Below, in pieces: positions 6,286-31,579 of a stretch of 32,781 nt of DNA (position 1 is the stretch's first letter; each line of letters opens with the position of its first letter). Origin of the DNA: an uncultured Spirochaetaceae bacterium (GTDB lineage Bacteria; Spirochaetota; Spirochaetia; Sphaerochaetales; Sphaerochaetaceae); contig CAMOXM010000003.1 of the NCBI GenBank assembly GCA_946629155.1, positions 1 to 32,781 of the forward strand, in the 5' to 3' direction. A program made the position numbers and the translations under genes. Below the pieces are notes generated by a model. The model did no database searches. It saw only the letters and a list, made by a program, of their open reading frames with translations, and was not told the DNA's origin.

Positions 6286-6383
6286 AGGGCGCTTCTAAAA
6301 ATCCCAGAGTCCAAACCTGCCAGATGTCCTTCCGACTGAAAAGCCACAAGCATCTTCGAACAGCAGGTTTTTAGAAGTGCCCT
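6286..6383. repeat. MITE-like element, short copy A (~98 bp) with terminal inverted repeats AGGGCGCTTCTAAAAA / TTTTTAGAAGTGCCCT
   Basis: The terminal inverted repeats were read directly. It belongs to the same family as the copies at 26641-26802 and 31415-31579. Confidence 0.7.
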
Positions 6384-6537
6384 GAAATTTTTTTCTTCAT
6401 GATGCTCGCCCTTCCGTCGCATAGCATCCGTTTCGAAAAAAATTCCAGGGCAACCTCCTGATTGCAACTTTTACGGAAAAAGATATAATAGGAATAATAA
6501 TATATTGTTCGTCTATTATAATAGAGGAGAATGAGAG

Positions 6538-7737
6538 ATGAAGGACAAAGTAACGATTGGAATGTACATCGATCAGCTTAGGGGTTATGATACTTCTAAA
6601 ATGTATCTGAACGATTTTTATCACACCTGGAAGGAAAGCGATGACGAGATCGCTGCTACCTTCACTGTGGCTGAGATTCTCAGGGGGCTTAGGGAAAACA
6701 ACATTTCCAGCAAGGTCTTCAAGTCGGGTCTTGGAATTTCGCTTTTCAGGGACAACTCGACTAGGACGAGGTTCAGCTTCGCTTCCGCTTGCAATCTTCT
6801 CGGACTCGAGGTTCAGGATTTGGATGAGGGCAAGAGCCAGATAGCGCACGGCGAGACCGTTAGGGAAACGGCCAACATGATTTCGTTCATGGCTGATGTC
6901 ATCGGAATCAGGGATGACATGTATATAGGAAAGGGCCACGCCTATATGAAGGAAGTCGCCGATGCTGTTCAACAAGGCTACAGGGATGGCGTTCTCGAGC
7001 AGAGGCCTACCCTTGTCAATCTTCAATGCGACATCGACCACCCGACTCAGACGATGGCTGATATGCTTCATGTCATCAATTATTTTGGCGGCGTCGATAA
7101 GCTCAAGGGAAAGAAAGTCGCTATGACTTGGGCATACAGTCCCTCTTATGGCAAACCGCTCTCTGTTCCGCAGGGCGTGATCGGCCTTTTCTCGAGGTTC
7201 GGCATGGAAGTGGTTCTCGCGCATCCGGAAGGCTACGACATCATGAAGGACGTCGAGGACGTCGCCAGATCCAACTCGCTCAAGAGCGGCGGTTCGTTCA
7301 GGAAAGTCAATTCGATGGAAGAGGCTTTCGAGGGTGCGGACATCGTTTACCCTAAGTCTTGGGCTCCGTATTCCATTATGGAGGAAAGGACAAGGCTTGT
7401 CGAAACGGGCGACAAGCAGGCGCTTGCCGACCTTGAAAGAAGGTGTCTTGAGAACAACGCCAGGTTCAAGAATTGGGAGTGCACCGAAGAGCTTATGGCT
7501 TCCACGAGGAACGGCAAGGCTCTCTATCTGCATTGTTTGCCCGCTGATATTACGGGTGTTTCATGCGAAGCCGGCGAGGTTTCCGCTTCTGTTTTCGACA
7601 GGTATAGGGATCCTCTTTACAAGCAGGCTTCTTTCAAGCCTTATATCATAGCCGCGATGATCTTCCTTTCGAAGTTCAAGAATCCTGCGGAAAAGCTACA
7701 GCAGCTGCTTGACGAGGCTAAGCCGAGAATCAAATAA
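6538..7737 (+). CDS. YgeW-like (knotted) carbamoyltransferase of the OTC/ATC superfamily
   Basis: Carbamoyl-phosphate motif STRTRFSF and an HCLP motif. Its 399-aa length, with N-terminal and internal extensions, is typical of YgeW-type enzymes rather than canonical OTC. Ribosome-binding site GAGGAG. Confidence 0.75.
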   Translation: MKDKVTIGMYIDQLRGYDTSKMYLNDFYHTWKESDDEIAATFTVAEILRGLRENNISSKVFKSGLGISLFRDNSTRTRFSFASACNLLGLEVQDLDEGKSQIAHGETVRETANMISFMADVIGIRDDMYIGKGHAYMKEVADAVQQGYRDGVLEQRPTLVNLQCDIDHPTQTMADMLHVINYFGGVDKLKGKKVAMTWAYSPSYGKPLSVPQGVIGLFSRFGMEVVLAHPEGYDIMKDVEDVARSNSLKSGGSFRKVNSMEEAFEGADIVYPKSWAPYSIMEERTRLVETGDKQALADLERRCLENNARFKNWECTEELMASTRNGKALYLHCLPADITGVSCEAGEVSASVFDRYRDPLYKQASFKPYIIAAMIFLSKFKNPAEKLQQLLDEAKPRIK

Positions 7738-7810
7738 GGATTGATTCGATTATGCGGAGCAAACCGTAAAGTGCCGTTTGCTGCGTATCCGCGCTGCTGC
7801 GTGGTTAGGG

Positions 7811-7839
7811 GGCGATGGGATTTTCCTGTCGCCTTTTTT
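7811..7839 (+). terminator. probable Rho-independent terminator
   Basis: Imperfect GC stem GGCGATGGGA/TTCCTGTCGCC followed by TTTTTT after the carbamoyltransferase stop. Confidence 0.4.
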
Positions 7840-7859
7840 ATTAGAGGTATTTTCAAAAT

Positions 7860-8010
7860 TCCTTTCTTCACGCTACTCGCTCTTCCAGCGTAAGCCGCAA
7901 GTCCTTCGGATTCACCTCCGGAACGGGCATATACACAAAGTATTAGCCCGTTCCGGAGGGGAACGCCCTACGTCGGAATAGACTTCGCATCGTTTTGAAA
8001 TCAATTTTGA
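7860..8010. repeat. diverged copy of the composite intergenic repeat family (CTTCAYGCTRCTYGCTCTTCC ... AGACTTCGCATCRTTTTGAAATCA) with an internal 11-bp-arm hairpin
   Basis: It shares both end blocks with the 13012 and 13215 copies. The internal hairpin is CCGGAACGGGC...GCCCGTTCCGG. Confidence 0.5.
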
Positions 8011-8070
8011 AAAGACCTAATTAGAGATGATTGCCTTGAGATAAATTTTGGGACAATCTCCCTCGTTCGG

Positions 8071-8101
8071 ATTTCTAGAAGCATTTGGGTTTTTAGAAGC
8101 G
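8071..8101. repeat. solo MITE terminal-repeat-like fragment (ATTTCTAGAAGCA...GTTTTTAGAAGCG)
   Basis: It matches the GTTTTTAGAAG terminal-repeat core of the MITE family; no second end is nearby. Confidence 0.35.
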
Positions 8102-8161
8102 TTCCGGATATGCTGGTTATCGGCTGGCTGATTCCGGAAGCGGTTTATTAGGAGAAGATAA

Positions 8162-9064
8162 ATGTTTGCGAGAAAGATGGCGGCATTGATGCTGCTGATG
8201 GTTTTGACTTGTTTTTCATGCGCCAAGAACGCTGAAGGCGCAAAGGGTTCGGCTGATGTCGAGGCGACAGGTTCCGAGAGTTCCGAATCCGGTTCCAGAC
8301 CAACCGATTATGTTCAAATAAACGACAATGCCTTGAAGGTTAAGAGAGCGAACGGCGAGACGGTTGAGATCGCGCCTTGCGCCCCGTCGAACACCTGCGA
8401 TGATGTCGCCTATGCCCTTGCGATGCAGATTATCGGCAATATCAAGGGCATCTATTCCGAGGTCTATGGCAGGGAGCAGAAAGCGAACCTTTCCGATTCC
8501 GAAATCGGTTCTTTCCTTCAGGGCTTGCTTGATGCGGAAAACGGCAGGGAGTTGGATTACGGATTCATGATGGATATTGGGAATCGTCTTCAGGCCGATG
8601 CGGATGCGAAAAGGGCCAAGAGCCGCGAAGCAGCCGAGAACTATTTCAAATCGTTGGAGGCTCGCGAAGACATAATCAAAACTGATTCGGGTCTTATGTA
8701 TGAGGTGATTGCCGAAGGCGACGGCAATGGCGGAATCGATAGCGAATCGAAAGTGAATGTAGATTATGTCATGTCGGTCTATCAGGAAGGCGCGCCTGAT
8801 AACAAAGTCGAGGCGGATAGCAATCAGGATATTGATTTCATCGTTTCCAATCTGATTCCCGGAGCTATCGAGGGTTTGAAGCTTATGAGGGAAGGCTCTG
8901 AGTATGTGTTCTATATAAATCCCGAACTCGGATACGGACCTGTTGCGGTAAGCCCCGTAATCGGACCGGATTCGTATCTCATATTCAAAGTGAAGGTCAA
9001 CAAGATACATCCGGACGAAACGCCTGAAGATAGTGAAGCGCCTTCTTCCGAACGGACTGAATAG
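8162..9064 (+). CDS. FKBP-type peptidyl-prolyl cis-trans isomerase lipoprotein (FkpA/Mip-like)
   Basis: Signal peptide with a lipobox-like LTCFSC; C-terminal FKBP domain (VNVDYVMSVYQEG...YVFYINPELGYGP). Confidence 0.75.
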   Translation: MFARKMAALMLLMVLTCFSCAKNAEGAKGSADVEATGSESSESGSRPTDYVQINDNALKVKRANGETVEIAPCAPSNTCDDVAYALAMQIIGNIKGIYSEVYGREQKANLSDSEIGSFLQGLLDAENGRELDYGFMMDIGNRLQADADAKRAKSREAAENYFKSLEAREDIIKTDSGLMYEVIAEGDGNGGIDSESKVNVDYVMSVYQEGAPDNKVEADSNQDIDFIVSNLIPGAIEGLKLMREGSEYVFYINPELGYGPVAVSPVIGPDSYLIFKVKVNKIHPDETPEDSEAPSSERTE

Positions 9065-9093
9065 GCGGCTGACAAGCGCTTTGCAAGGAGGAC

Positions 9094-9675
9094 TTGCTTA
9101 TGAGTAGGAATGGCGTAGTGAACAGAAGCGTCAATCTCTTGGTTGCGGGAATAATATCATTGGTTGCCGTAATTACGGGAATTCTGTTGCTGTTCTATAC
9201 CTACGACACGATGAAGGCGATTACCGTAGTCATCGGCATAGCCGCTTTATTCGTAGCCATTCGTTCGTTGATGATATCCAAGGAGATCGATGATCCGAGT
9301 CTTAAATCATCCATGAAGGTCAGGGCTTTGATATCGATAGCGGTAGCCGTCATGATGATAGTTTTCCCGTCTCTCTTATACAACGTCAATAAGTATATCT
9401 GGTATTTTGTGATTTATTTGGCGGCTTTCGTGCTGATTTCGTCGGGGGTGCTGGCGATTGCGCAAGCGATATTGTTCAAATCGGAATGGTGGAAAAGCTC
9501 GCTGATTTTCGAAGGGCTGCTTTCATTAGTGGCAGGATTGGCTTTGCTTCCCGATGTAATGACGAGGTTTTTAGGCGATTTCATATTGAAGCTGTTCGGA
9601 ATCGCATTGGTGGTGCTGGGCGTTTGCTATTTCATATCGAACTTCAACAGGCGATACGATTTGAAGGAGATATAG
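9094..9675 (+). CDS. polytopic membrane protein (HdeD/DUF308-like short-repeat TM protein)
   Basis: About six hydrophobic helices with repeated GxxxL spacing; no other signature. Confidence 0.55.
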   Translation: MLMSRNGVVNRSVNLLVAGIISLVAVITGILLLFYTYDTMKAITVVIGIAALFVAIRSLMISKEIDDPSLKSSMKVRALISIAVAVMMIVFPSLLYNVNKYIWYFVIYLAAFVLISSGVLAIAQAILFKSEWWKSSLIFEGLLSLVAGLALLPDVMTRFLGDFILKLFGIALVVLGVCYFISNFNRRYDLKEI

Positions 9676-9724
9676 GCTTACGCTCGACATCGTTCTGATA
9701 TGCGCGACGGCGCTTTGCATTGGC

Positions 9725-10240
9725 ATGAGCGCCGTTTTCTTTTTCATGTGGCGGAATACCGTCCGCAAGTATTCGCTTCGGGAAACCGAAAAGCTTATCC
9801 GGAAATATCGGGACGAGTTCAATGGCATCGTAAGCGAAAAGCTGGAAATAACTCAGGAAAAGGCTATTGAAATCACAGACAGGTTCAATTCCGTAGAAGG
9901 CGAGATCGAATATTTCAACCAAAGGATGCGTGAAGCGAAAGCGCTCCTCATGAAGCTCGACAATACTAACGAACTGATACAGAATACCGTCGAGAAGAAT
10001 CTGAGCCGCGATGAAGCGCTTATCACGATGAATAAGGAACTCGAGGACCTGAAGAGGAAGATAAGCAGTTCGGATGGAGGACTAAGCGGCGCTATGGCTG
10101 AAATGGTGAACGGCATGGAAGAGGCGTTGAAGAGGATAAAGGCTGTCGAGACGAGCAATGCTAAGCTAAGAAAGGATTTTGACGATTTCGAGCATATCAT
10201 TGTCAGCATAGTGGAACGGCTTAAGGTTTTGGAGAAGTAG
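9725..10240 (+). CDS. coiled-coil protein with N-terminal hydrophobic segment; the start may lie upstream on a non-ATG codon
   Basis: Heptad-rich sequence. The in-frame upstream residues LDIVLICATALCIG continue the hydrophobic helix back to nt 9677. Its stop abuts the asnS ATG. Confidence 0.5.
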   Translation: MSAVFFFMWRNTVRKYSLRETEKLIRKYRDEFNGIVSEKLEITQEKAIEITDRFNSVEGEIEYFNQRMREAKALLMKLDNTNELIQNTVEKNLSRDEALITMNKELEDLKRKISSSDGGLSGAMAEMVNGMEEALKRIKAVETSNAKLRKDFDDFEHIIVSIVERLKVLEK

Positions 10241-11620
10241 ATGAAAAGAACTATAAGGGAGATATTGCAATTGAGCGCGGGAAGCGAAGCGACGGCTACC
10301 GGTTGGGTGAAAACGAAAAGAGACAGCAAGAACGTCGCTTTCATTTCCCTTGGGGACGGAACATGTTTCGATGCGCTCCAAGTCGTCATAGATAAAAGCA
10401 ATTTCAAGGATTTGGGTGTGGTCGAAGCCATGAACACTGGCGCGTCATGCCAATTCGAAGGCGCGCTCGTCGAGAGCGTCGGAAAGAACCAGAGCGTGGA
10501 GCTTCAGGCGAAGAGCTGCAAGATGTTCTGCAATGCGGATGACTCCTATCCGCTTCAGAAGAAAAGGCAGACATTCGAGTTCTTGAGGGAGATGCCCCAT
10601 TTGCGCGGCAGAACCAACACTTTCGGCGCGGTTATGAGGGTGAGAAGCCTTTTGGCGTTTGCCATACACAAGTTCTTTCAGGAGAAAGGTTTTTTTTACC
10701 TCAACACGCCTCTTGTAACCACATCTGATTGCGAAGGCGCGGGCGAGATGTTCGAGGTGACCACTTTGGACATCTCCAAGCCGCCCAGAACGAAGGACGG
10801 CGATGTCGATTTCGCTAAGGATTTCTTTTCCAAGAAAGCGTTTCTGACGGTTTCGGGACAGCTTGAAGGCGAATCGTATGCGACGGCAATAAGGAACATA
10901 TACACTTTCGGCCCGACTTTCCGTGCGGAGAAATCATCTACTACCAGGCATTTGGCTGAGTTCTGGATGGTGGAGCCGGAAATGGCCTTTTACGATTTGA
11001 ACGACGATGCCGACCTCGCCGAAGAATTCCTGAAGCATATTTTCAAATATGTTCTCGACAACGATGCTCGCGATATGGAATTTTTCGACAAGTTCATTTT
11101 GGAAGGCGTGACCGAAACCATAAGGCACGTGATCGAAAAGCCGTTCGTGCGCATGTCATACACGCAAGCGATCAAGGAATTGGAGAAGAACAACAAGAAG
11201 TTCGAATATCCCGTGAAATGGGGCTCCGACATTCAGACCGAGCACGAGCGCTACATAAGCGAGACCGTATGCAAGGCCCCTGTGATCCTCACCGATTATC
11301 CCAAGGAGATAAAAAGCTTCTACATGAAAGCGAATGACGACGGCAAGACTGTCAGAGCCATGGATGTTCTCGTTCCGCGTCTCGGTGAAATCATAGGCGG
11401 CAGCGAGAGGGAGGAGAACTACGATAAGCTTCTCGCAAAGATTCGCGAGCTCGGGCTCAAGGAAAGCGAATACGAGTGGTACTTGGATCTTCGCAAGTTC
11501 GGCAGCGTTCCACATTCCGGATTCGGTCTCGGCTTCGAGAGGGCCGTTCTTTATCTGACAGGCATGCAGAACATAAGGGATGTGATAGCATATCCGCGTT
11601 TTTGGAAATCTGAGAAATAA
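10241..11620 (+). CDS. asnS: asparagine--tRNA ligase
   Basis: Class II aaRS motifs FRAE, GGSEREE and GFGLGFERAVLY; N-terminal OB anticodon-binding domain; ribosome-binding site GGAGAAG. Confidence 0.9.
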   Translation: MKRTIREILQLSAGSEATATGWVKTKRDSKNVAFISLGDGTCFDALQVVIDKSNFKDLGVVEAMNTGASCQFEGALVESVGKNQSVELQAKSCKMFCNADDSYPLQKKRQTFEFLREMPHLRGRTNTFGAVMRVRSLLAFAIHKFFQEKGFFYLNTPLVTTSDCEGAGEMFEVTTLDISKPPRTKDGDVDFAKDFFSKKAFLTVSGQLEGESYATAIRNIYTFGPTFRAEKSSTTRHLAEFWMVEPEMAFYDLNDDADLAEEFLKHIFKYVLDNDARDMEFFDKFILEGVTETIRHVIEKPFVRMSYTQAIKELEKNNKKFEYPVKWGSDIQTEHERYISETVCKAPVILTDYPKEIKSFYMKANDDGKTVRAMDVLVPRLGEIIGGSEREENYDKLLAKIRELGLKESEYEWYLDLRKFGSVPHSGFGLGFERAVLYLTGMQNIRDVIAYPRFWKSEK

Positions 11621-11632
11621 AGGGAGGATAAT

Positions 11633-12997: not shown

Positions 12998-13011
12998 GAG
13001 GTTCTTTTAAG

Positions 13012-13118
13012 ACTGCTTCCTTCATGCTGCTTGCTCTTCCGTCGCATAGCATTTTCCTCTAAAATGCGCAAATGCACAAAGCATTGGCGATTTTCTCGAA
13101 AAATGCTCTGCGGCAGAA
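13012..13118. repeat. intergenic repeat, copy 1 of a near-identical ~105-bp direct duplicate (continues to ~13150)
   Basis: ACTGCTTCCTTCATGCTGCTTGCTCTTCCGTCGCATAGCATTTTCCTCTAAAATGCGCAAATGCACAAAGCATTGGCGATTTTCTCGAAAA, repeated at 13215. Confidence 0.7.
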
Positions 13119-13214
13119 TAGACTTCGCATCATTTTGAAATCAGTTTTAAAATAACCTCTATAAGAGGTTTCTTCGAGCAGCAGGTTTTTTTAAAGCACC
13201 CCGAAGATTTCGAA

Positions 13215-13350
13215 ACTGCTTCCTTCATGCTGCTTGCTCTTCCGTCGCATAGCATTTTCCTCTAAAATGCGCAAATGCACAAAGCATTGGCGATTTTCTC
13301 GAAAACGCTCTGCGTCGGAACGAGCTTCGAGATCGCTTTTTAGGAGTTGT
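13215..13350. repeat. intergenic repeat, copy 2 (direct duplicate, ~203-bp period), reaching the ribosome-binding site of the next gene
   Basis: Near-identical to 13012-13118. Its tail, CGGAACGAGCTTCGAGATCGCTTTTT, parallels CAGAATAGACTTCGCATCATTTTG of copy 1. Confidence 0.7.
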
Positions 13351-13353
13351 CTA

Positions 13354-14463: not shown

Positions 14464-14478
14464 AAAGGAGGTGGGATT

Positions 14479-14697
14479 ATGATGGAAAAGCTTGCAACCA
14501 ATTATCCTTTCATAATAGGGGCTTTCATCTTGTCGGCATTTATAGCTTTCATAGTATGGCTGTCTCTCCGTTCGCAAATGAAATACCAGAAGACGAGGCA
14601 AGTCAACATGACCTATTTGAACGCCGATAATGTTCGGATTCGCAAAAGCAAGGACATTTTCCTGTACGAAGAAACCAGCGGTGGTGAGGACAAGTAG
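14479..14697 (+). CDS. small single-pass membrane protein
   Basis: 72 aa with one TM helix; strong ribosome-binding site AAAGGAGGTG; 15 nt after the previous stop. Confidence 0.5.
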   Translation: MMEKLATNYPFIIGAFILSAFIAFIVWLSLRSQMKYQKTRQVNMTYLNADNVRIRKSKDIFLYEETSGGEDK

Positions 14698-14731
14698 GAA
14701 GAATAGTTTGATCCTGAGTTTAGTTATGTTG

Positions 14732-14772: not shown

Positions 14773-14791
14773 TTACAGCGCGTTCGGAGGA

Positions 14792-16905: not shown

Positions 16906-18858
16906 ATGAGAGAATTGAAGACGATTGACGAAGTTAACTTCAAAGGCAGAAGGGTTCTTATCAGATTTGATTTCAATGTGCCGGTGAAGGATGGCGTGAT
17001 TCAGGACGATGAGAGAATAGTTCAGAGCTTGCCTACGCTGAATTTGGTGCTTTCCAAAGGCGGAATCCCTGTCATAATGGCCCATTTCGGCAGGCCGAAG
17101 GGCGAGGCGAATCCGAAATACAGCCTTGCTCCAGTGGCGAAGAGGCTTGAGGAGCTCATAGGGAAAAAGGTCGTTTTGCTTGGCGACATCACCAGCGATG
17201 CGACTTATGAGAAGATAAAGGCCGCAGAAGTCGGAGATGTAATTCTTCTTGAAAACATAAGGTTCGAGAAAGGTGAGGAGAAGAACGATAAGGAGCTGTC
17301 CAAGGCGCTCTCGAAATTCGCCAATGTCTATATCAATGACGCATTCGGATGCGCGCACAGGAATCATGCCTCTACCGAAGGCGTAACGCATTTCATCGAC
17401 GATTGCTATGCGGGTTTCCTTATGAAAAAGGAAATAGACATTCTCTCAAAACTCAGAAAGAATGCCGATGCTCCATTCGTGGTGATTGTCGGAGGCTCCA
17501 AGGTTTCATCGAAGATAAGCGTTCTTGAGAGCTTTTTGAAGATCGCCGACAAGATAGTGATCGCAGGAGCGATGGCCTATACATTCCTCAAAGCGCAGGG
17601 TCATGCTGTCGGAAAGAGCATGGTGGAGGATGATTATCTCGAAACGGCTCTTTCGTTCCTCAATAGGGCTGCTGAACTTAAGAAGAAGATTGTTCTTCCT
17701 TCGGACCATGTGTGCGCTAAGGAGTTCGACGCTTCTGCTGAGCCTGTGGCCGTTAACAGCGTCGATATTCCGGAAGACCTGATCGGCATGGACATAGGGG
17801 AGAAGACGCTTGCGGATATCAAGAAGGCGATAGGCGGAGCAAAGACCGTGTTCTGGAACGGACCTGCCGGAGTGTTCGAGTTTGATAATTTCGCCAAGGG
17901 AACCAATGAAATCGCTCGCATGATAACTTCTTTGAGAGATGCCAAGACGGTTGTCGGCGGCGGAGATAGCGTCAGCGCCATCAAAAAGAGCGGGCTTAGC
18001 GACAAGATATATCATGTTTCGACCGGAGGCGGCGCATCGCTTGAATTCCTTGAAGGCAGATATTTCGATAGTCTGACGGCGTTGTACAGAAGAGGCAATC
18101 GCAGAAAGCTCGTGGCCGGTAACTGGAAGATGAACATTACGAAGCCGGAGGGCCTTGAAATCGCAACTTATCTTAGGGATAAGGCTGATGTTCAGAACGT
18201 TGAAATTGCACTTTGTCCCGAATTCCCGCTTCTTGATTGCGTTGCTAGCACTCTTTCGAAGTCTCAGATCGATGTGTATGCGCAAAATGTGAACGAAAAC
18301 GAGAAGGGCGCGTATACAGGCGAGGTTTCCTGCGAGGTAGTCAAATCGGTCGGCGTTCGCAAAACCATTCTCGGGCATAGCGAGAGAAGGGAGTTCTTCA
18401 CTGAAACGAATTCATTGCTGAACAAAAAGCTCAAGAGGGCTTTCGAATACGGTTTCGATGTGATCCTGTGCGTGGGCGAGGATAAGCTGAGAAGGAAGGT
18501 CGGCTCTTGGAAAAGATTTCTCGCGTTCCAGCTCACCAACTGCTTGAAGGGGATTTCCCCTGCGGATGCGAAGGAGCACCTGATCATCGCTTACGAGCCT
18601 ATATGGGCGATTGGAACCGGCAAAAGCGCGACGGCTGAAGATGCTGAAGAGGCGATTTCGTATATAAGGGGCAGGATTGCCAAGATATTTTCGGAACGCA
18701 TAGCGGATAATATCAAGATTTTGTATGGCGGTTCTGTCACGCCCGAAAACGCTAACGAGATCATGACGCAGAACGACATCGACGGCGTTCTCGTCGGCGG
18801 CGCATCGCTCAACAAGGAGAAGTTTTCTAAGATATGCGAAGTCGCCGCAGCACTGTAG
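16906..18858 (+). CDS. pgk-tpiA: bifunctional phosphoglycerate kinase / triosephosphate isomerase fusion
   Basis: PGK domain to ...GGGASLEFLEG. The TIM domain follows in the same frame, from LVAGNWKMN, with AYEPIWAIGTGKSAT and ILYGGSV. One continuous 650-aa ORF; ribosome-binding site AGGAGGAGG. Confidence 0.85.
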   Translation: MRELKTIDEVNFKGRRVLIRFDFNVPVKDGVIQDDERIVQSLPTLNLVLSKGGIPVIMAHFGRPKGEANPKYSLAPVAKRLEELIGKKVVLLGDITSDATYEKIKAAEVGDVILLENIRFEKGEEKNDKELSKALSKFANVYINDAFGCAHRNHASTEGVTHFIDDCYAGFLMKKEIDILSKLRKNADAPFVVIVGGSKVSSKISVLESFLKIADKIVIAGAMAYTFLKAQGHAVGKSMVEDDYLETALSFLNRAAELKKKIVLPSDHVCAKEFDASAEPVAVNSVDIPEDLIGMDIGEKTLADIKKAIGGAKTVFWNGPAGVFEFDNFAKGTNEIARMITSLRDAKTVVGGGDSVSAIKKSGLSDKIYHVSTGGGASLEFLEGRYFDSLTALYRRGNRRKLVAGNWKMNITKPEGLEIATYLRDKADVQNVEIALCPEFPLLDCVASTLSKSQIDVYAQNVNENEKGAYTGEVSCEVVKSVGVRKTILGHSERREFFTETNSLLNKKLKRAFEYGFDVILCVGEDKLRRKVGSWKRFLAFQLTNCLKGISPADAKEHLIIAYEPIWAIGTGKSATAEDAEEAISYIRGRIAKIFSERIADNIKILYGGSVTPENANEIMTQNDIDGVLVGGASLNKEKFSKICEVAAAL

Positions 18859-19557: not shown

Positions 19558-19590
19558 ATTTTATTATTGAGACCTTTTTCAAAATTTCTT

Positions 19591-19832
19591 GGCTATGTCC
19601 GAAAGTTCGACTGATAGGACAGGGCCGTGGAGCCGGAGAGGTGCCGGAGAGGCGCGTTTCGGGGAGGAAACCCTAATGCAGGATGAGGCTTTGTATCTTA
19701 CGGTGCTTCGCATCCGCGATTACGTTGTATGCCTATCCAAATGGGTTTTTGCCCTGGAGCGCGCATATCCGACGCATATCCGGCGACTGGATATGGCTGA
19801 ATAAATGATCAGTCATTTATTCGGACATAGCC
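19591..19832. repeat. GC-rich ~242-bp segment bounded by a perfect 13-bp inverted repeat (GGCTATGTCCGAA / TTCGGACATAGCC); candidate MITE or structured RNA
   Basis: Terminal inverted repeats are exact. Inside are direct repeats GCCGGAGAGG x2 and GCATATCCG x2, and a 10-bp-arm palindrome GAATAAATGA-TCAG-TCATTTATTC at 19799-19822. Confidence 0.4.
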
Positions 19833-19882
19833 GGATTTTTCGCACTTGTGACAATTCCGCGTTTTTGTCGTCTATAAATGGT

Positions 19883-24950: not shown

Positions 24951-25013
24951 AGAATTTTTCATCGGATAGAAGATGACGTAATTTTTGAAAAACTAAAAGA
25001 TAAAGCGTAATAC

Positions 25014-25043
25014 TTGTCAATTATACATCTTTAGGAGTATAAT
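25014..25043 (+). promoter_or_regulatory. sigma70-like promoter TTGTCA-18-TATAAT before DUF3990 copy 1
   Basis: Hexamers read directly; AGGAG at 25033-25037; the ATG is at 25050. Confidence 0.35.
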
Positions 25044-25049
25044 AGTGTT

Positions 25050-25728
25050 ATGAAAAAGACAATCTATCATGGTTCGAACTCAATCATCGAGAAACCTGTT
25101 TTCGGATACGGAAAGGTTCGCAACGATTATGGATTGGGCTTTTATTGTACGGAAGAATTAGATATGGCAAAAGAGTGGGGCGTTTCAAAAAATGCCGGTG
25201 GATATGCCAACATTTACAAAATCGAAATGGACGGGCTTCTGTTTTTGATTTGAATTCTGATGAATGCACAATTCTTCATTGGCTTGTGATTCTTCTTGAG
25301 AACAGGACTTTTGATATCAGCTCCGCACTTGCGCAAGAGGCAAAAAGAGCTATCTTATTAAAAACTTTTCCACGCCTTATGAAGATTATGATATCATCAC
25401 TGGCTATCGTGCGGATGATAGTTATTTTTCGTTCGCCCAGGATTTTATCAATGGCACTATTTCCGTGCGGAACTTGGGCAATGCAATGAAATTGGGAAGG
25501 CTTGGGAATCAGTTTGTCTTAAAAAGCAGGAAGGCTTTTGAAGCAATTCACTTTGTCGGTTTCGAAGCGGCAGAATCTTCCGTATGGTTTGCAAGGAAAG
25601 AGAATAGAGACATGAGCGCGCGCCGGCAGTATCTCGATGGCGAGAGAAACAAGAGGCAGTCTGGTGATTTGTATATTGTCCAAATTCTGGAGGAGGGGAT
25701 TAAAGCCGATGATCCGCGCTTACGATAA
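25050..25728 (+). pseudogene. DUF3990-family gene, frameshifted (three reading-frame pieces)
   Basis: Pieces at 25050-25253, ~25236-25385 and ~25380-25728 each align to the intact paralog 27047-27745 (YHGS, DYGxGFYCT, GYRADDSYFS, ADDPR). Both shifts sit at homopolymer runs. Confidence 0.65.
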
Positions 25729-26338
25729 GAGCTATCTTTCAAAGGCTCAATCTTCACTCGCTTCAATGCTCGATTTCGCAATTTACGATTTGAAGCAGGA
25801 GCTTGAGGAATTTTATAAGAAATTTTTGGAATCAAACATATCGAAACGATTTGAATCAGGCGAATCATCGGTAATCGCCGGAAAGTCGGGTGTTGAGCTT
25901 GCACTTGAGGTTATGGGGGACGAGGGGCTTGCAAAGGAATATCGTCCGGTTGCGAATCGAAGTCCGGAGTATTGGACTGGATGGGCTCTCGCTTATTTTC
26001 AATGGCAGACCAATCTTACTTTCGGGCAGATAAATTCGTTCGTTCCGATTGCGGAAGTGCTTGCCATGTATAACCCTTATCACGAAATGGATATCTCCCA
26101 ATTTTGCGACAAGATGACGGAGCTTTACAATTCCAGGAAGCATGAAACGAATCTGAAAAGATACCGTCTTGCTGCTGGCCTTTCCCAAAACGAATTAGCC
26201 GAAGTGTCCGGCGTTCGAGTTCGAACGATTCAGCAATACGAGCAGAGGGTGAAAAACATAAACGCTGCTAGGGCGGAAAGCGTCATCGCCTTGTCGAAAG
26301 CCCTTAATTGCCCGGTCGAAATGCTGATGGAGGTGTAG
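25709..26338 (+). CDS. DUF3791-like N-domain fused to XRE-type HTH (partner of DUF3990)
   Basis: Paralog of 27711-28358 (MIRAY..., SPEYWTGWALAYFQW, C-terminal HTH LAAGLSQNELAEVSGVRVRTIQQYEQ). The start ATG sits inside GATGATCC, overlapping the upstream ORF end. Confidence 0.7.
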   Translation: MIRAYDKSYLSKAQSSLASMLDFAIYDLKQELEEFYKKFLESNISKRFESGESSVIAGKSGVELALEVMGDEGLAKEYRPVANRSPEYWTGWALAYFQWQTNLTFGQINSFVPIAEVLAMYNPYHEMDISQFCDKMTELYNSRKHETNLKRYRLAAGLSQNELAEVSGVRVRTIQQYEQRVKNINAARAESVIALSKALNCPVEMLMEV

Positions 26339-26385
26339 TGGAATAATTTTTGCGAAATCGGAACTGTGGTCTTCAGGAGCGCCCT

Positions 26386-26634
26386 TTAGATAGGTTTCGC
26401 AACTTTTTCGACATCGCTTGTCGTCATCTCTAGGTATTTCGCCACGCTGTAGAGCGGGATGCCGAGGCCGAATGGGTCGAAGCCGCAGAGGAACAGCACG
26501 TACGAATCGCGTATGCTCTGATAGTCGCCGCCCTTTGCGAGCATCCCGATGTCCATCAGGCTGGCCGACTCCAGCCAGCGCCTGAAGGCCGCGTTGTCCG
26601 CCTCTACCGCTTTGGCGAAGCCTGCCGGTTTCAA
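26386..26634 (-). CDS. small hypothetical ORF (82 aa), GC-rich and antisense to the neighbouring genes; possibly a gene remnant
   Basis: The only plausible minus-strand ORF in the window. Local GC is well above its flanks. Its start abuts MITE copy B. Confidence 0.3.
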   Translation of the reverse strand: MKPAGFAKAVEADNAAFRRWLESASLMDIGMLAKGGDYQSIRDSYVLFLCGFDPFGLGIPLYSVAKYLEMTTSDVEKVAKPI

Positions 26635-26640
26635 GTCATA

Positions 26641-26802
26641 AGGGCGCTTCTAAAAACCTGCTGTCTAGAGAGCGCCTGTGGATTTCGGAATCGGAAAAGC
26701 GTCCGGAAATCGCATGATACTGTCGTATTTTGCTATTTTCGGGCGATTTTCAGAGCCGAAAGGTATAGGCGAAATCGGACTCTGAGGGTTTTAGAAGTGC
26801 CT
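26641..26802 (-). repeat. MITE-like element copy B (162 bp), inverted relative to copy C
   Basis: Terminal repeats AGGGCGCTTCTAAAAAC ... GTTTTAGAAGTGCCT. The interior is ~85% identical to the reverse complement of 31415-31579. Confidence 0.75.
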
Positions 26803-26889
26803 ATAATATATCCTTTCACAACGCTTTTTTCAAGGTAAGCTGCGTCTCCTATATATTATGTCCCTGAAAATGCGTGATTGTCCCTAAAC

Positions 26890-26919
26890 TTGTCAAAATT
26901 TTTGGTGAGATAGTATTTA
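26890..26919 (+). promoter_or_regulatory. candidate promoter (TTGTCA-16-TAGTAT) with downstream small palindromes (ATCGTT-GT-AACGAT) in a ~130-nt leader before DUF3990 copy 2
   Basis: Hexamers and palindromes read directly. The palindromes are a possible operator for the HTH partner. Confidence 0.3.
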
Positions 26920-27046
26920 TTTGGATAGAGTATAGTAGAAAAAGGTTTTAATAAATCAGCACACCCCTCGACAAAGTATCGTTGTAACGATATAATAATG
27001 TAACGTCGATGAAAATTCTCACGATATTCGCAAAAGGAGAAATGGC

Positions 27047-27745
27047 ATGGCGATCATCAGGCTTTTTCATGGTTCGGATCATATTGTAAAAAGGCCGGAT
27101 TTATCTGCAGCCAGGCCGGCGAATGATTACGGCAAAGGATTCTATTGCACGTTTTCTTTGGAAATGGCGAAGGAGTGGGCATGCAAGAAGAACACCGACG
27201 GTTTTGCGAATGAGTATGCTTTTGACGACGAAGGACTTAGAATCTTGAATTTGCTTGACGGAAAGCATACCGTTCTTAATTGGATAGCCTTATTGCTGAA
27301 ACATCGTGTTTTTGTCATAAATGATGAGATTGCTTTGGACGCAAAGGACTATATCATAGATAATTTTTCCGTGGATACGACTGGATATGACGTTATCAAA
27401 GGGTACAGGGCGGATGATTCGTATTTTTCTTATGCGCAGTCATTTGTTCACAATGCATTGCCTTTGCGTTGCTTGGGCAGGGCTTTAAGACTTGGTGAGC
27501 TTGGAGAGCAAACGGCTCTTGTTTCGGAAAAGGCATTCGATCGGATCGAGTTCGTATTGGCAGAGCCGGTAAGCAAAGAGATTTATTATCCTAAGTTCGT
27601 CGCACGCGATACCAGTGCCCGAACAGCATATAGCGAAGAGATTAAGAGGGGCAGGTCTTATCGTGATGATATTTTCGTGATGGATATCATAAGGGGAGAA
27701 GTTAAGAGCGATGATCCGCGCATACAATGCATTATACTTAAGTGA
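27047..27745 (+). CDS. DUF3990-family protein (intact copy)
   Basis: 232 aa; conserved LFHGS, NDYGKGFYCT, GYRADDSYFSYAQ and SDDPR blocks shared with the degraded copy. Ribosome-binding site AAAGGAG. Confidence 0.75.
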   Translation: MAIIRLFHGSDHIVKRPDLSAARPANDYGKGFYCTFSLEMAKEWACKKNTDGFANEYAFDDEGLRILNLLDGKHTVLNWIALLLKHRVFVINDEIALDAKDYIIDNFSVDTTGYDVIKGYRADDSYFSYAQSFVHNALPLRCLGRALRLGELGEQTALVSEKAFDRIEFVLAEPVSKEIYYPKFVARDTSARTAYSEEIKRGRSYRDDIFVMDIIRGEVKSDDPRIQCIILK

Positions 27746-28358
27746 TGCTCAAATTTTTCTTGCCAATGCGTTTGATTATGCATTGAACGACTGCGGCCAG
27801 GAGCCGGATTGGTTCGGGTTTGTTTTCGCTCGCTCCGCCATATGCAGACGATTCGAAACGGGAAGCCCTGCAGTCATATCGGGCAAGTCGGGCAAAGAGG
27901 ACGTGAGAGAGCTGCTGCAGACGATTGTGCCCGATGAAGAATTTCCGCCGGCATCTTTTTCGCAGGAACGGTCGTCTGCTTATTGGGCTGGATGGGCGCT
28001 TGCATATTATCAGTGGTTTACAGTAAAACGATTTAAAGACATTTTCATCCGTGTTCCGCTTTCGGAAATCCTATTGATGCATAAGCTTTACCATGAGATG
28101 GATTTGACCAATTTCGTCGAGGAATTAGATAGGAGATATGATTCGGTTGTCTTGGAAACGAAATTGAAGAAGATACGGGAATCCAGAGGGCTATCGCAAG
28201 CACAGCTTGCTGAAATGTCTGGAGTGGCCAAGCGTTCCATACAGCTATATGAGCAGAGAGTAAACGATATAGACAAATCCCAAGGTCAAACTTTGTATAA
28301 GCTCTCAAGAGTGCTAGGCTGCGACATAGAGGATTTGCTGGAAAGCCCGGAAAAATAG
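27711..28358 (+). CDS. DUF3791-like N-domain fused to XRE-type HTH (partner of DUF3990)
   Basis: It overlaps the DUF3990 3' end by 35 nt. The C-terminal classic XRE HTH is LSQAQLAEMSGVAKRSIQLYEQ. Confidence 0.75.
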   Translation: MIRAYNALYLSDAQIFLANAFDYALNDCGQEPDWFGFVFARSAICRRFETGSPAVISGKSGKEDVRELLQTIVPDEEFPPASFSQERSSAYWAGWALAYYQWFTVKRFKDIFIRVPLSEILLMHKLYHEMDLTNFVEELDRRYDSVVLETKLKKIRESRGLSQAQLAEMSGVAKRSIQLYEQRVNDIDKSQGQTLYKLSRVLGCDIEDLLESPEK

Positions 28359-28540
28359 GCCATATACGGTCGCCGGATACGCGCCGAATATGTGCGCCTC
28401 GGAACGAAAACCCATTAGGATAGGCACGAAGCCTCATCCTGCATTGGGATTTACGTTCCAGTTTGAAAGAGCAAGCAGCATGAAGAAGACCATTCTGCAG
28501 GCGAGAGATTCTTAGGGAAGATATGCCTGACCATAGAACC

Positions 28541-28795
28541 ATGGAGCACATAAACGAGTCTTTTGACTATGAGGTTTACGGCAAATCCTACGATGGCGAG
28601 ATATGGAGTGCGAACAGATCCTATCCGTTCAATAACTACCATGAGTTCGAGTACCATTTCATCAGCCTTTTCATGCACAGGTTCTTCGGCGAATCACGTT
28701 GCCTTGCCCTTTACGATGCTCTGAATCTCGATGCGGACTGCCTGTGGTATCAAATTCATGTGAATATGGAGAAAGAAAGATGTCTACACTATTAA
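28541..28795 (+). CDS. small hypothetical protein (84 aa), aromatic/acidic-rich
   Basis: Non-repetitive ORF with ribosome-binding site AGGGAAG. No recognisable family. Confidence 0.3.
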   Translation: MEHINESFDYEVYGKSYDGEIWSANRSYPFNNYHEFEYHFISLFMHRFFGESRCLALYDALNLDADCLWYQIHVNMEKERCLHY

Positions 28796-28868
28796 AGGCG
28801 AATATATAGAGCCGAGACAGGGTCGAGACGATTGTAAATCGACCGAATTTGGATGCTGATAGAACTAA

Positions 28869-28956
28869 CTATTGGAAAAACAACTAAAATTGGGTAGAAA
28901 AGTATTGGAAAAACAACTTAAATGAAGTAAAATAGTATTGGAAAAACACTTTACAG
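28869..28956 (+). repeat. three tandem ~33-bp direct repeats (core TATTGGAAAAACAACTNAAAT) immediately upstream of the AAA ATPase gene
   Basis: Units at 28869, 28902 and 28935 were read directly. Confidence 0.6.
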
Positions 28957-28978
28957 CATAAAGGCGATTAGTTTTAGT

Positions 28979-30295
28979 ATGTTTAGAAGAAAAATAGAAG
29001 AAAGGCTGTATGAGTATTATAAGAACCCGGATGATAGGGTTCTCATTGTGGAAGGCGCAAGGCAGGTCGGCAAGAGCTTTATAATCCGTCACACGGCAAA
29101 GAACAGCTTTGAGAATTTCATAGAAATAGATTTGAAGGCGGATCTCGAAGGCGACAGGCTTTTTGCAAATGCCAAAAGCACGCGCGACTTCTATTTGGCA
29201 TTGAGCTCGAAATATGGGCAGAGCCTTGGAGATTTTCAGAACACGATTGTTTTTTTGGATGAGATTCAGTTTTATCCGCATCTGATGACATTGCTCAAGG
29301 AGTTGAAGAAGGAGGATAGGTTTCGATACATAGCAAGCGGGTCTCTGTTGGGGGTGACGTTGAGACAGATTTTCATACCGATGGGCTCAATAGAGGAAGT
29401 CAGGATGTTTCCGCTTGATTTCGAGGAATTCCTTTGGGCTAACGGAGTAGGCGTTGACGTGGTTTCGTATTTGAGGAGATGTTTTGACGATGTTGCCGAA
29501 GTCGGCGAAGACATTCACTCTAGAATTCTGAGATTGTTCAAGGATTATCTCATATCGGGCGGGTTTCCGGATGCGGTGAAGGAATATGTGATAAACCAGA
29601 ATGTGCAACGGATGCGAAAGGTTCACGATGAAATATTTGCATACTATAGCGCGGATTGCTCTCAATACGACAATGAACACAGGCTGAAAATCATGCGAAT
29701 CTACGGCTCTCTGATCTCTAATATGCAAAACAAAGTGAAAAGGGTGCAGTTCAAGAAAATCGAGGGACTCGCAAATGCCAATGCCGAGAAATATGTCGAT
29801 GAATTCGATTATTTGGCATATTCGGGCGTCGCTTTGTTCACGCGCGCTGTCAGCAACCCCGTTTTTCCGCTTTCTGAAACTAGCAGTAAGAACCTGTTGA
29901 AATTGTATTACAACGATGTCGGGATTCTCACGAACCTTTTGTTTAAGAATAACATCAATGCAATCCTTGCCAATGACAAGGGCATAAACTTAGGTTGCGT
30001 CTATGAGACCGCCTGCGCATGCGAGCTCGCAAGCCATGGACACGAGCTTTTTTATTTCGACAGCAAAAAGACAGGCGAAGTCGATTTTCTGATAAATGAC
30101 TACGACAAGCTGTCCGCAGTTCCAATAGAGATAAAATCGGGCAATGATCAGAACAACTTCCGCGCCATACCTAAGCTGGTCGACAGAAACGGCAACTACA
30201 AGCTGTCCTGCGGTTATGTCTTCGGAAACAAGAATGTAGCTGTGAGGCAAAACGACCTTATCATCATGCCGGTTTACATGATTATGTTTGCGTAG
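28979..30295 (+). CDS. AAA+ ATPase with C-terminal DUF4143-like domain (COG1373-type)
   Basis: N-terminal Walker A EGARQVGKSF and Walker B-like IVFLDEIQ; a C-terminal restriction-endonuclease-like module, typical of this abundant family. Confidence 0.8.
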   Translation: MFRRKIEERLYEYYKNPDDRVLIVEGARQVGKSFIIRHTAKNSFENFIEIDLKADLEGDRLFANAKSTRDFYLALSSKYGQSLGDFQNTIVFLDEIQFYPHLMTLLKELKKEDRFRYIASGSLLGVTLRQIFIPMGSIEEVRMFPLDFEEFLWANGVGVDVVSYLRRCFDDVAEVGEDIHSRILRLFKDYLISGGFPDAVKEYVINQNVQRMRKVHDEIFAYYSADCSQYDNEHRLKIMRIYGSLISNMQNKVKRVQFKKIEGLANANAEKYVDEFDYLAYSGVALFTRAVSNPVFPLSETSSKNLLKLYYNDVGILTNLLFKNNINAILANDKGINLGCVYETACACELASHGHELFYFDSKKTGEVDFLINDYDKLSAVPIEIKSGNDQNNFRAIPKLVDRNGNYKLSCGYVFGNKNVAVRQNDLIIMPVYMIMFA

Positions 30296-30409
30296 GACAT
30301 TCTCGAAGCAGATGGTAATGTTGAAAAATCCATTCGGCTGCTGTATTGATCTGTCGTTTTGCTATCGAAATATTTTTCTATATATGCTATATTATTTGTG
30401 ATTGCTAAT

Positions 30410-31379
30410 ATGGAAATATCACTGCCTGAATTCATTGATAACATGCACAAGACGCTTAGTCAAAGCATCAAGGAGGAAATTAAGCCGGGAAGCAGGATTT
30501 CCGTGGCTGTGGCTTGTTTTTCGATTTATGCATATCGGGAATTGAAGAATGAACTAAAGGATATTGATGAATTGAGGTTTGTGTTCACTTCTCCGACCTT
30601 TATCGCGGATCGGATTAAGAAAGAAAAGCGCGAGTTCTATATTCCGCGTCTTAATCGCGAAAGAAGTCTTTACGGCACCGAGTTCGAAGTGAGATTGCGG
30701 AACGAGCTCAAGGCAATCGCAAAAGAATGTGCGGGATGGATTAGGAGAAAAGCTCGTTTCAAATCAAATTCAACTCAGCAGAACATGCCGTGCTTTATGA
30801 ATGTCGATGAAGAAACGGGAAGCAGCGGATTCTCGCATGGTCGATTTGTCGGAATTGTCTATGGATGATGATTATGATTTAGACGATCAGAACGCAAGCG
30901 ATATGTTTGAAATCGGAAAGAAGGTCAGAATCGATTTGAACGATATGGACTATGTCACATGGCTTGCGGATTTGAAACTCGATGCTGCAGTTCTCGATGG
31001 ACTTGAGGTTCTGACTTCTGAAATCACTCCGGAAAAAGATTCGAAGCTTCAAAAGCTGATTGGGATAATCAGGGGTAAAATAGAAAATCCAATCAACGAG
31101 GGCAATAGGAAGGTGATTATATTTTCCGCATTCGCCGATACTGTGGAGTATCTTTATGGGAATCTGAGTGGGTTCTTAAAGGAAAAGTACGGATTGAATA
31201 CCGCAATGGTCAGCGGCACTACGGAGGGGCGAAGCACTCTTGAAAAGTTCAGTTGCGACTTGAATGCCGTGCTTACTTATTTCTCGCCTCTTTCAAAGGA
31301 TAAGGATGTGATCTATCCAGGTGACACGAGGAGCATAGACATTCTTATTGCAACGGATTGCGAATGTGCAACAGGTTAA
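30410..31379 (+). pseudogene. remnant of a PLD-like nuclease + SNF2/ResIII-type helicase gene (N-terminal PLD piece and C-terminal helicase piece only; core ATPase domain missing)
   Basis: 30410-30868 encodes ...ISVAVACFSIYAYRELKNEL...LRFVFTSP...FSHGRFVGIVYG and then a stop. A different frame, 30801-31379, encodes the helicase C-domain (KVIIFSAFADTVEYLYGNL...YFSPLSKDKD...IDILIATDC) and stops just before MITE copy C. Confidence 0.55.
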
Positions 31380-31414
31380 ATTTGATGCGGACATAGGCCG
31401 TATCGACATAGTGA

Positions 31415-31579
31415 AGGGCGCTTCTAAAAACCTCAGAGCCCGATTTCACCTGATGCCTTTCGGGTCTGAAAATCGCCGGAAACCAGCAAAATATGACAGT
31501 ATTCCGCTGGTTTACGGCGATTTTCCGCCTCTGAAATCCGCAGGCGCTCTCTGGGCAGCAGGTTTTTAGAAGTGCCCTG
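31415..31579 (+). repeat. MITE-like element copy C (165 bp) with terminal repeats AGGGCGCTTCTAAAAAC / GTTTTTAGAAGTGCCCT and a long internal hairpin
   Basis: The terminal repeats are reverse complements with one mismatch. The internal repeat is GAAAATCGCCGGAAACCAGC / GCTGGTTTACGGCGATTTTC. Confidence 0.8.

Follow-up and report, generated by a model that had tools for sequence, protein, structure and literature searches.

A probable family of non-autonomous MITEs with IS5-type ends in an uncultured Spirochaetaceae bacterium

ERIC/IRU and Correia elements are MITEs that are palindromic over their whole length and are flanked by a TA duplication, and the IS5 element of E. coli, like the elements considered here, generates a 4-bp duplication. 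Bacterial MITEs derived from the IS5 family have already been described, i.e. BrickBuilt and MITEPgRS of P. gingivalis, which carry the ends of ISPg1/ISPg4, and the ATR element of Neisseria, which carries those of ISNme1 (PMC4596501), and spirochaetes have been noted as MITE-rich (PMC11602168). Here we analysed a stretch of 32,781 nucleotides from an uncultured Spirochaetaceae bacterium (hereafter the window), for which a sequence-only reading had proposed a family of non-autonomous MITEs. The repeats in this window very probably constitute such a family, gene-less, hairpin-forming and bounded by ends of the type used by IS5 transposases. The proposal is supported by autonomous insertion sequences (ISs) with matching terminal inverted repeats (TIRs), by target-site duplications (TSDs), by further copies elsewhere and by an empty site, in a related genome, for the block in which copy A lies.

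Copies, ends and remnants in the window

The three full copies proposed from the sequence were all recovered at their places with slightly corrected coordinates (Table 1). They measure 96, 161 and 162 bp, show no similarity to transposases and are bounded by inverted ends of 15-16 bp (GGGCRCTTCTAAAAA / TTTTTAGAAGYGCCC), one end of copy B being degenerate. The 17-mer AGGGCGCTTCTAAAAAC has 7 matches in the window at up to 3 mismatches, as compared with 0.09 expected, a number reached in none of 100 shuffles. The terminal repeats had originally been described as 17 bp long; the repeats are genuine, but their outermost A/T is the inner base of the 4-bp TSD. Over 163 nt, copies B and C share 84% identity, in line with the earlier estimate of ~85%, and copy C has a 97% identical counterpart at a different locus (L139). 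Copy A matches the two ends of a 161-bp copy (L132:1675-1835) with 98% and 96% identity, respectively.

Table 1. Features of the window and related elements at other loci
Feature	Position	Strand	Details
Element ends			GGGCRCTTCTAAAAA...TTTTTAGAAGYGCCC; 16-bp TIRs; boundaries GGGC...GCCC
MITE copy A	6287..6382	+	96 bp; subfamily 2; central deletion of ~65 bp
TSD of copy A	6283-6286 and 6383-6386		TGAA
MITE copy B	26642..26802	-	161 bp; subfamily 1; orientation opposite to copy C; low-identity end degenerate, GTTTTAGAAGTGCCT
TSD of copy B	26638-26641 and 26803-26806		ATAA
MITE copy C	31416..31577	+	162 bp; subfamily 1
TSD of copy C	31412-31415 and 31578-31581		TGAA
Decayed right end, family-1 MITE	13171..13207	+	TCTTCGAGCAGCAGGTTTTTTTAAAGCACCCC; nhmmer E 0.015; alignment
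Possible decayed right end, weak	8071..8105	+	GGGTTTTTAGAAGCGTTCC; 3 mismatches; nhmmer E 1.5
Possible decayed right end, weak	26369..26385	+	GTCTTCAGGAGCGCCCT; 3 mismatches
Family-2 MITE-like element hosting copy A	6272..6460	+	ends about GAGGTTTTCCTGAAATTTTTTTC and inverted match
Autonomous IS	L042:4587-5871		1285 bp
Autonomous IS	L064:5183-6447		1265 bp
Autonomous IS	L099:916-2169		1254 bp
Autonomous IS, one element at three sites	L141-L143		1313 bp; TSDs TCCA, ATAA, ACAA
Autonomous ISs with the same ends	L144, L145, L146		
Unrelated MITE family	Nitrosomonas/Gallionellaceae		141 bp
Unrelated MITE family	Sulfurimonas		266 bp
Unrelated MITE family	Undibacterium		99 bp
Unrelated MITE family	Alphaproteobacteria		53 bp

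Among the solo ends suggested previously, the one at 13171-13207 is genuine and represents a decayed right end, while the two others are weak candidates; that at 8071-8105 is immediately preceded by a partial duplication, and that at 26369-26385 is unlikely to be a chance match given the 0.09 matches expected in the whole window. The 32.8 kb thus hold three intact copies and one to three decayed ends. A TIR-like string (GGGCGCTTCTAAAAT) was also seen at the end of an HD gene in locus L129, aligned against the window, and is probably due to chance or a remnant.

Copy A lies within the left end of an element of a second repeat family (family 2), and its excision in silico restores a colinear family-2 element. 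The two families adjoin because of this nesting, which also explains the recurrence of the TIR core beside the second repeat family noted earlier. The stretch 13163-13320 is a decayed copy of the same composite of a family-2 element and a family-1 MITE, the remnant at 13171-13207 occupying the same position within the family-2 left end as copy A. The related loci L129/L130 are devoid of the whole 193-bp block formed by the family-2 element and copy A; the block is flanked on each side by ATTG, of which the empty site keeps one. This insertion polymorphism concerns the composite, the insertion of copy A by itself being deduced from the paralogous comparison only. Copy A is also where the short-read contigs from this strain all break off.

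Copy C is flanked by a fragment of an SNF2/DrmD-like helicase (E 2.3e-7) and by a 5'-truncated DUF4391 gene. It was thought to mark the breakpoint of the helicase remnant; it does adjoin this fragment, but its intact TGAA/TGAA duplication points to a simple insertion and argues against a rearrangement breakpoint. The small ORF (6397-7533, minus strand) reported beside copy A lies antisense to ygeW and found no support.

Searches of the window by Pfam and tblastn retrieved no transposase, as had been stated, and the Rfam models gave no match over its whole length at gathering thresholds. Copy C had no blastn match among plasmid and phage records, and scanning of viral contigs with the TIR yielded two single matches. 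The TIR string returned nothing relevant from the full text of papers, with one irrelevant match in yeast.

Duplications, distribution and autonomous relatives

Perfect 4-bp TSDs flank 65 of the 93 paired elements at the fetched loci, the permutation mean being 7.2 (maximum 16) and the shifted control giving 0; no other TSD length fits these elements. Perfect duplications of differing sequence flank all three window copies (TGAA, ATAA and TGAA) as well as 11 other members of the family. The targets are AT-rich tetranucleotides, mostly TNNA, a preference that is partly biased because the scan pattern began with A, so that either T was imposed on the first TSD position or A on the fourth.

Many more copies exist outside the window, with at least 10 in the Spirochaetales MAG RUG14265 and others in 10 metagenome contigs. 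The copies of the family fall into two diverged subfamilies, copy A being a deletion derivative, and share a non-coding interior with a mean column identity of 73% over 13 copies from unrelated loci and different genomes. MITE families occurring in several phyla (Table 1) are otherwise unrelated and have only the 16-bp end in common.

Our search for autonomous ISs with matching TIRs identified nine elements of 1.25-1.31 kb in other bacteria, none of them a spirochaete, with the same ends and, in eight of the nine, perfect 4-bp TSDs. Their proteins match NF033581 ('IS5 family transposase') at 1e-82 to 1e-89, besides DDE_Tnp_1 and DUF772; the transposases of L042, L064 and L099 score 275-297 bits against NF033581 (cut-off 140) and contain PF01609 and PF05598. 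A profile search with these three transposases, aimed at a spirochaete helper, returned at least 7,915 proteins at E <= 1e-60, mostly on IS-sized contigs that carried no taxon names, and six ISs from this search (L141-L146) were then used to confirm ends and TSDs. An IS5 on a Sphingopyxis plasmid has the ends GGGCACCTCGAAAAA and the TSD AAAG. Two other candidates for full ISs were discarded: the TIR pairs in L013 and L053, spaced by 2.9 kb and 4.3 kb, respectively, each consist of two separate MITEs around ordinary genes, a glucose/sorbosone dehydrogenase in the former and MCP and GroEL in the latter. In L071 (Ruminococcus), the only transposase present is truncated.

Neither the window nor the fetched spirochaete loci nor the metagenome matches listed contained an autonomous IS with matching ends. 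A helper transposase would be expected to reside, or to have resided formerly, in the spirochaete lineage, and we infer DDE chemistry and mobilisation in trans for the window MITEs. According to the mechanism that we propose, the 16-bp repeats GGGCRCTTCTAAAAA(Y) would be the ends bound and cleaved by one IS5-group clade (DDE_Tnp_1 and DUF772). The transposase, supplied in trans, would bind both ends, and the element would insert at an AT-rich tetranucleotide, mostly TNNA, through a 4-bp staggered cut whose repair would leave the 4-bp duplication. The interior, a near-full-length imperfect palindrome, could fold into a single long hairpin, whether in single-stranded DNA or in RNA.

Hairpin structure and alternative explanations

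The long hairpin noticed in the sequence was corroborated by folding, each copy reaching far lower energies than its shuffles: -87.2 kcal/mol for copy C (z -9.0), -55 kcal/mol for copy B (z -5.3) and -32.8 kcal/mol for copy A (z -3.9). RNAalifold recovered only the terminal stem from the mixed-subfamily alignment, whose centre is poor, and the structure of one copy was therefore tested instead. Across diverged copies, 83.8% of cells are paired in this structure as compared with 35-48% in slid controls, both partners have changed in 16 pairs and the covariation score reaches 0.191 (controls 0.04-0.09), although the structure was taken from one sequence of the set and kinship among the sequences inflates such scores.

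Compensatory maintenance of the hairpin could reflect selection for something besides transposition. It is thus conceivable, albeit unlikely, that these are former MITEs now kept for a host function, e.g. as bidirectional terminators or attenuators, mRNA stabilisers or small RNAs. MITE roles of such kind have been considered in a review (PMC10969869), and the retention of the hairpin in diverged copies, the position of copies in intergenic DNA beside gene ends and a promoter-like site at 26833-26805 (minus strand), which would read through copy B toward an 82-aa ORF, are all compatible with this idea. Palindromic interiors are, however, common among MITEs and may serve transposition itself. 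Furthermore, the idea that the elements supply terminators or promoters fails at site A, where the terminator of the upstream gene and the ygeW promoter both map outside the block and also occur in the relative without it; copies B and C yielded no terminator-like site, to which the absence of Rfam matches can be added, and both copies are located within decayed defence-island DNA. The window copies have the appearance of passengers, carried by DNA that is intergenic or decayed, rather than of parts with a host function. In a broader version, to which we give equally little credence, one IS5-group clade, recognising a nearly invariant 16-bp end, would have launched many unrelated MITE families across several phyla and the spirochaete hairpin would be kept either for a host function or for an undescribed hairpin-dependent step of transposition. 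The host roles named under this version are RNA terminator, stabiliser and small RNA.

It is much less probable that every copy arose independently, as the internal-deletion remnant of a local full-length IS, the short form never having been amplified. MITEs do generally arise from ISs by deletion, and copy A itself originated by a deletion, but the same non-coding interior recurs in different genomes and at loci unrelated to one another, and it resembles neither the transposase genes nor the subterminal regions of the ISs identified, which argues that the short element itself has multiplied. Least credible of all is that these short, intergenic, palindromic and multi-copy elements are REP/REPIN- or ERIC-type palindromes spread by RAYT (Y1) proteins or kept as structured motifs instead of being moved by a DDE enzyme, since exact 4-bp TSDs of varied sequence are not products of REP/RAYT, IS5-type ISs have identical ends and Pfam detected no Y1 transposase in the window. 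A MITE family mobilised by an IS5-type transposase is the reading that we retain.

Comparison with described elements

The family in the window is new, although its kind is already known; with IS5-ended MITEs (PMC4596501) and the MITE richness of spirochaetes (PMC11602168) on record, the finding is sound but ordinary. Its importance lies mainly in annotation and assembly: the MITE copies account for the repeat patchwork of intergenic regions and for the interruption of contigs when this spirochaete is assembled from short reads, and the 16-bp signature combined with a 4-bp duplication can be used for finding IS5-type MITEs in many phyla.

BrickBuilt, MITEPgRS and ATR resemble the window MITEs in being non-autonomous, in measuring tens to hundreds of bp, in sharing their ends with IS5-family ISs, in their intergenic location, in nesting within other repeats and in numbering about 10-20 copies per genome. 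Their TIR is of the type GAGACCTTTGCA, as compared with GGGCRCTTCTAAAAA in the window family, which has no internal minisatellite and shows regular 4-bp TSDs instead of the irregular ones of BrickBuilt. An end type GAGACC/GAGGT...CAAAA is present in the second repeat family of the window and not in that of copies A, B and C. Like ERIC/IRU and Correia elements, a class covered by a review (PMC10969869), the window MITEs are imperfect palindromes of ~100-200 bp that form one long hairpin, lie between genes and may be co-transcribed; unlike them, they have different ends and a different duplication, share no sequence similarity with them and match no Rfam model. REP/REPIN elements (RAYT) are likewise short extragenic palindromes in many copies, but REPINs have neither target-site duplications nor IS-type TIRs, whereas the window MITEs have both. 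Close counterparts are also met among the IS5-group ISs, which share with the window MITEs identical or near-identical ends of 15-16 bp (GGGCRYYTCTAAAAA) and 4-bp duplications at AT-rich sites, and from which the MITEs differ by their length of 96-162 bp and their non-coding, unrelated interiors.

Family 1 in the window: copies, ends and hairpin

The sequence-only reading had described in the window a MITE family (family 1) with three full copies, A, B and C, plus solo ends. Our analysis confirms this observation and supports the MITE interpretation, which is backed by target-site duplications (TSDs), by autonomous insertion sequences (ISs) with matching terminal inverted repeats (TIRs) and by further copies beyond the window. 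The 17-mer put forward as the TIR has seven matches in the window at up to three mismatches, against 0.09 expected by chance, and a profile built from family members recovered exactly three full elements there, the same three. With this profile the solo end proposed at ~13165-13185 is recovered as a remnant spanning 13170-13190 (E 0.015); the one proposed at 8071-8101 gives a very weak match at 8079-8101 (E 1.5).

Element ends were set by aligning the flanks of every TIR match, both within the window and at the loci retrieved from public genomes. The repeats stood, but their outermost A and T belong to a 4-bp direct repeat, the element proper being GGGC...GCCC. Perfect 4-bp TSDs were found in 65 of the 93 paired elements from the window and fetched loci, against a mean of 7.2 and a maximum of 16 upon permutation of right flanks and 0 with shifted flanks; no other TSD length fits these 93 elements. 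The duplicated tetranucleotides are AT-rich, vary between copies and are mostly TNNA, a preference partly forced by a search pattern that began with A; five metagenome copies found with a flank-free pattern carry TCAA (three times), TTAA and TAAA.

Copies B and C, in opposite orientation, are 84% identical, close to the ~85% first estimated, and the long internal hairpin described for them holds for all three copies, which fold much better than shuffled sequence (z-scores -9.0, -5.3 and -3.9 for C, B and A). Most full-length copies form a single whole-element hairpin of -45 to -86 kcal/mol, with up to 60 pairs all bracketing the centre. When the structure of one copy was mapped onto an alignment of 13 mutually related copies, itself among them, 83.8% of cells were paired, against 35-48% with the partners slid by one to three columns; both sides had changed in 16 pairs, and the covariation score was 0.191, the slid versions reaching 0.04-0.09. 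Retention of the hairpin may reflect transposition or a secondary RNA role; no Rfam family for the element was found across the whole window.

IS5-type elements with the same ends

Scanning a genome collection with the TIR retrieved more than 115 stretches. Among the matches listed, three autonomous elements of 1254-1285 bp (L042, L064 and L099) have the same ends, perfect 4-bp TSDs and one ORF each (342-349 aa), whose products are IS5-family transposases (NCBIfam NF033581, 275-297 bits, cut-off 140) that also match Pfam DDE_Tnp_1 and DUF772. A profile search with these transposases revealed no fewer than 7,915 relatives (E <= 1e-60); six further ISs drawn from these share this type of end (GGGCATCTCTAAAAA / GGGCGCCTCTAAAAA or GGGCACTTCTAAAAA), five of them with perfect 4-bp TSDs, and an annotated IS5-family element of a Sphingopyxis plasmid shows GGGCACCTCGAAAAA ends and an AAAG duplication. 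Therefore, the link of transposase clade, end sequence and 4-bp duplication is well supported; by the chemistry of known DDE transposases, the duplication would arise from a staggered target cut and its repair. Included in the six further ISs is one 1313-bp IS5-type element at three sites in one assembly (L141, L142 and L143; ERZ22147072), with perfect TSDs TCCA, ATAA and ACAA; this autonomous clade member is apparently active and a potential helper for mobilisation tests.

Autonomous ISs with matching TIRs thus occur in other taxa. For the family's own spirochaete lineage, a search of the window, the fetched spirochaete loci and the metagenome matches found no helper, so that any current mobility of family 1 would be hypothetical. 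Among the matches listed, the 16-bp ends also surround unrelated interiors in other taxa, again with 4-bp TSDs; judging from this sharing of ends, the IS5 clade is the source from which many independent MITE families have arisen. A burst of ~141-bp MITEs was observed in Nitrosomonas sp. OFTM255 and Gallionellaceae MAGs, with at least 25 copies in the fetched pieces alone (L010, L013, L014, L020, L024, L029, L031, L041, L054 and other loci).

Features in the window and elements with family-1 ends in other taxa
Feature	Location	Remark
Copy A	6287-6382	TGAA both sides
Copy B	26642-26802	ATAA both sides
Copy C	31416-31577	TGAA both sides
Family 2, host of copy A	6272-6460	window
Family 2 copy	7845-8018	window
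Family 2 copy	13003-13160	window
Family 2 copy	13163-13320	window; decayed family-1 end
Family 2, further stretches	28440-28500 (reverse); 19568-19590	window
SNF2/DrmD-like helicase fragment	30801-31379	copy C between fragment and DUF4391 ORF
5'-truncated DUF4391 ORF	31592-31951	downstream of copy C
IS, 1254-1285-bp class	L042, Prolixibacteraceae	family-1 ends
IS, 1254-1285-bp class	L064, Rhodonellum	family-1 ends
IS, 1254-1285-bp class	L099, proteobacterium	family-1 ends
~141-bp MITE	Nitrosomonas, Gallionellaceae	dozens of matches in one MAG
266-bp MITE	Sulfurimonas	family-1 ends, unrelated interior
99-bp MITE	Undibacterium	family-1 ends, unrelated interior
131-bp MITE	Acidiferrobacteraceae	family-1 ends, unrelated interior
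159-bp MITE	Coriobacteriales MAG	family-1 ends, unrelated interior
53-bp MITE	alphaproteobacterium	family-1 ends, unrelated interior

Empty site, nesting and neighbouring genes

The window comes from the chromosome of a Spirochaetaceae MAG, whose PGK-TIM fusion protein and YgeW carbamoyltransferase are identical on GCA_003454065.1 contig DMKZ01000154 and several metagenome scaffolds; the YgeW protein carries the NCBI label 'Spirochaetaceae bacterium'. Its genes are mostly of housekeeping type (tyrS, MazG, HD, ygeW, FKBP, Asn/Asp-tRNA ligase, SPFH, ABC-F, pgk-tpi, DEAD helicase, dprA and a UvrA-like gene), with a variable stretch from ~25 kb on (HTH, DUF3990, AAA_14/DUF4143, helicase fragment, truncated DUF4391). 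The phosphoglycerate kinase-triosephosphate isomerase fusion (16906-18858) is one 650-aa ORF (PGK 5e-148, TIM 4e-84), and 28979-32434 is a decayed, defence-island-like stretch with an AAA_14/DUF4143 ATPase, the helicase fragment and the DUF4391 ORF.

In two contigs of a close relative (L129/L130; YgeW 100% identical when rounded, flanking DNA 86-93%), the upstream gene's terminator and the ygeW promoter are not separated by the 193-bp block that stands between them in the window; ATTG flanks this block at either end, and the contigs retain just one ATTG. The block is not A alone but an element of family 2, a second MITE-like repeat family, with A inserted at TGAA inside its left end; in silico removal of A and one TGAA leaves it colinear with the family-2 copies at 7845-8018 and 13003-13160. 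Since a 36-nt decayed family-1 right end sits in the copy at 13163-13320 exactly where copy A sits in its host, the composite itself was copied and later eroded, which together with the nesting explains why, as already noticed, the second repeat family has the TIR core next to it again. Family 2, also present in L131, has inverted ends of ~22 bp (GAGGTnTTTTCAAAATT...; GAGGTnTTTTCAAAA, and GAGACCTTTTTCAAAA at 19568).

The relative differs elsewhere too. Between ygeW and the FKBP gene (L129:8400-8800) it has tandem ~134-bp units, each containing a degenerate motif that resembles a right end (CAGCAGGTTTCAGAATCGCCC); the window's arrangement at this place is shorter and different. A PTS EIICBA gene, flanked by the HD-domain gene and a 553-aa gene (L129/L130:2878-5001), with a TIR-like string (GGGCGCTTCTAAAAT) at its left junction in L129, is missing at window 4493-4536. 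A third conserved, hairpin-capable repeat module (AAACCCTAATGCAGGATGAGGC...GCCTATCCAAATGGGTTTT...GCGCATATCCGACGCATATCCGGCGAC), with no Rfam match at gathering score, lies at window 19585-19841 and 28359-28455 (inverted), and at L102:1234-1455, L035:959-1141 and L125:1-94; it occurs upstream of the DEAD-box helicase gene and, in the Spirochaetales MAG RUG14265, directly adjoins a family-1 MITE.

The copies had been proposed as possible sources of terminators or promoters. At site A, a terminator-like hairpin with T-run (6248-6262) and a promoter-like TTGCAA-16-TATAAT (6462-6489) both lie outside the inserted block and are conserved in the empty-site relative, so neither was donated by the insertion. 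An 82-aa minus-strand ORF with no family match has copy B 7 bp upstream of it; a minus-strand promoter-like site abuts the copy, and no terminator-like site was called at site B. Copy C, 36 bp after the ORF with the helicase fragment (E 2.3e-7) and 14 bp before the DUF4391 ORF, which misses ~56 N-terminal profile positions, does adjoin the helicase remnant whose breakpoint it was said to mark; given its intact duplication, it looks like a simple insertion into DNA already decayed, not the cause of the breakpoint.

Spread of family 1 and relation to known MITEs

Among the matches listed, similarity of the interior, unlike that of the ends, is limited to spirochaete material. Beyond the window, family 1 has at least 10 copies in fetched pieces of RUG14265 and others in 10 metagenome contigs, for which a family-specific 22-mer was the probe, 11 of these copies having perfect, sequence-varied TSDs; plasmid and phage records yielded no copy. 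Two subfamilies can be distinguished, subfamily 1 including B and C and subfamily 2 including A. The two halves of A match the ends of a 161-bp copy (L132:1675-1835) at 98% and 96% identity, and by this alignment A is a deletion derivative missing the central ~65 bp. A C-like copy with 97% identity at a different locus in L139 suggests fairly recent spread, and same-strain short-read contigs all end inside copy A, the expected behaviour of a dispersed repeat.

A full-text literature search on the family-1 end sequence found no published description, and family 1 is a new family of an already known kind: bacterial MITEs with IS5-family ends are on record from P. gingivalis (BrickBuilt and MITEPgRS) and Neisseria (ATR; PMC4596501), and in a census of 183,232 genomes Spirochaetes stood out as rich in MITEs, at ~145 per genome (PMC11602168). 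The ends of family 2 resemble the ISNme1/ISPg1-type ends (GAGACCTTTGCAAAA) that PMC4596501 tabulates for ISNme1 and for IS5-family elements and MITEs of P. gingivalis, and the hairpin of family 1 is in keeping with the palindromic layout that many bacterial MITEs have.
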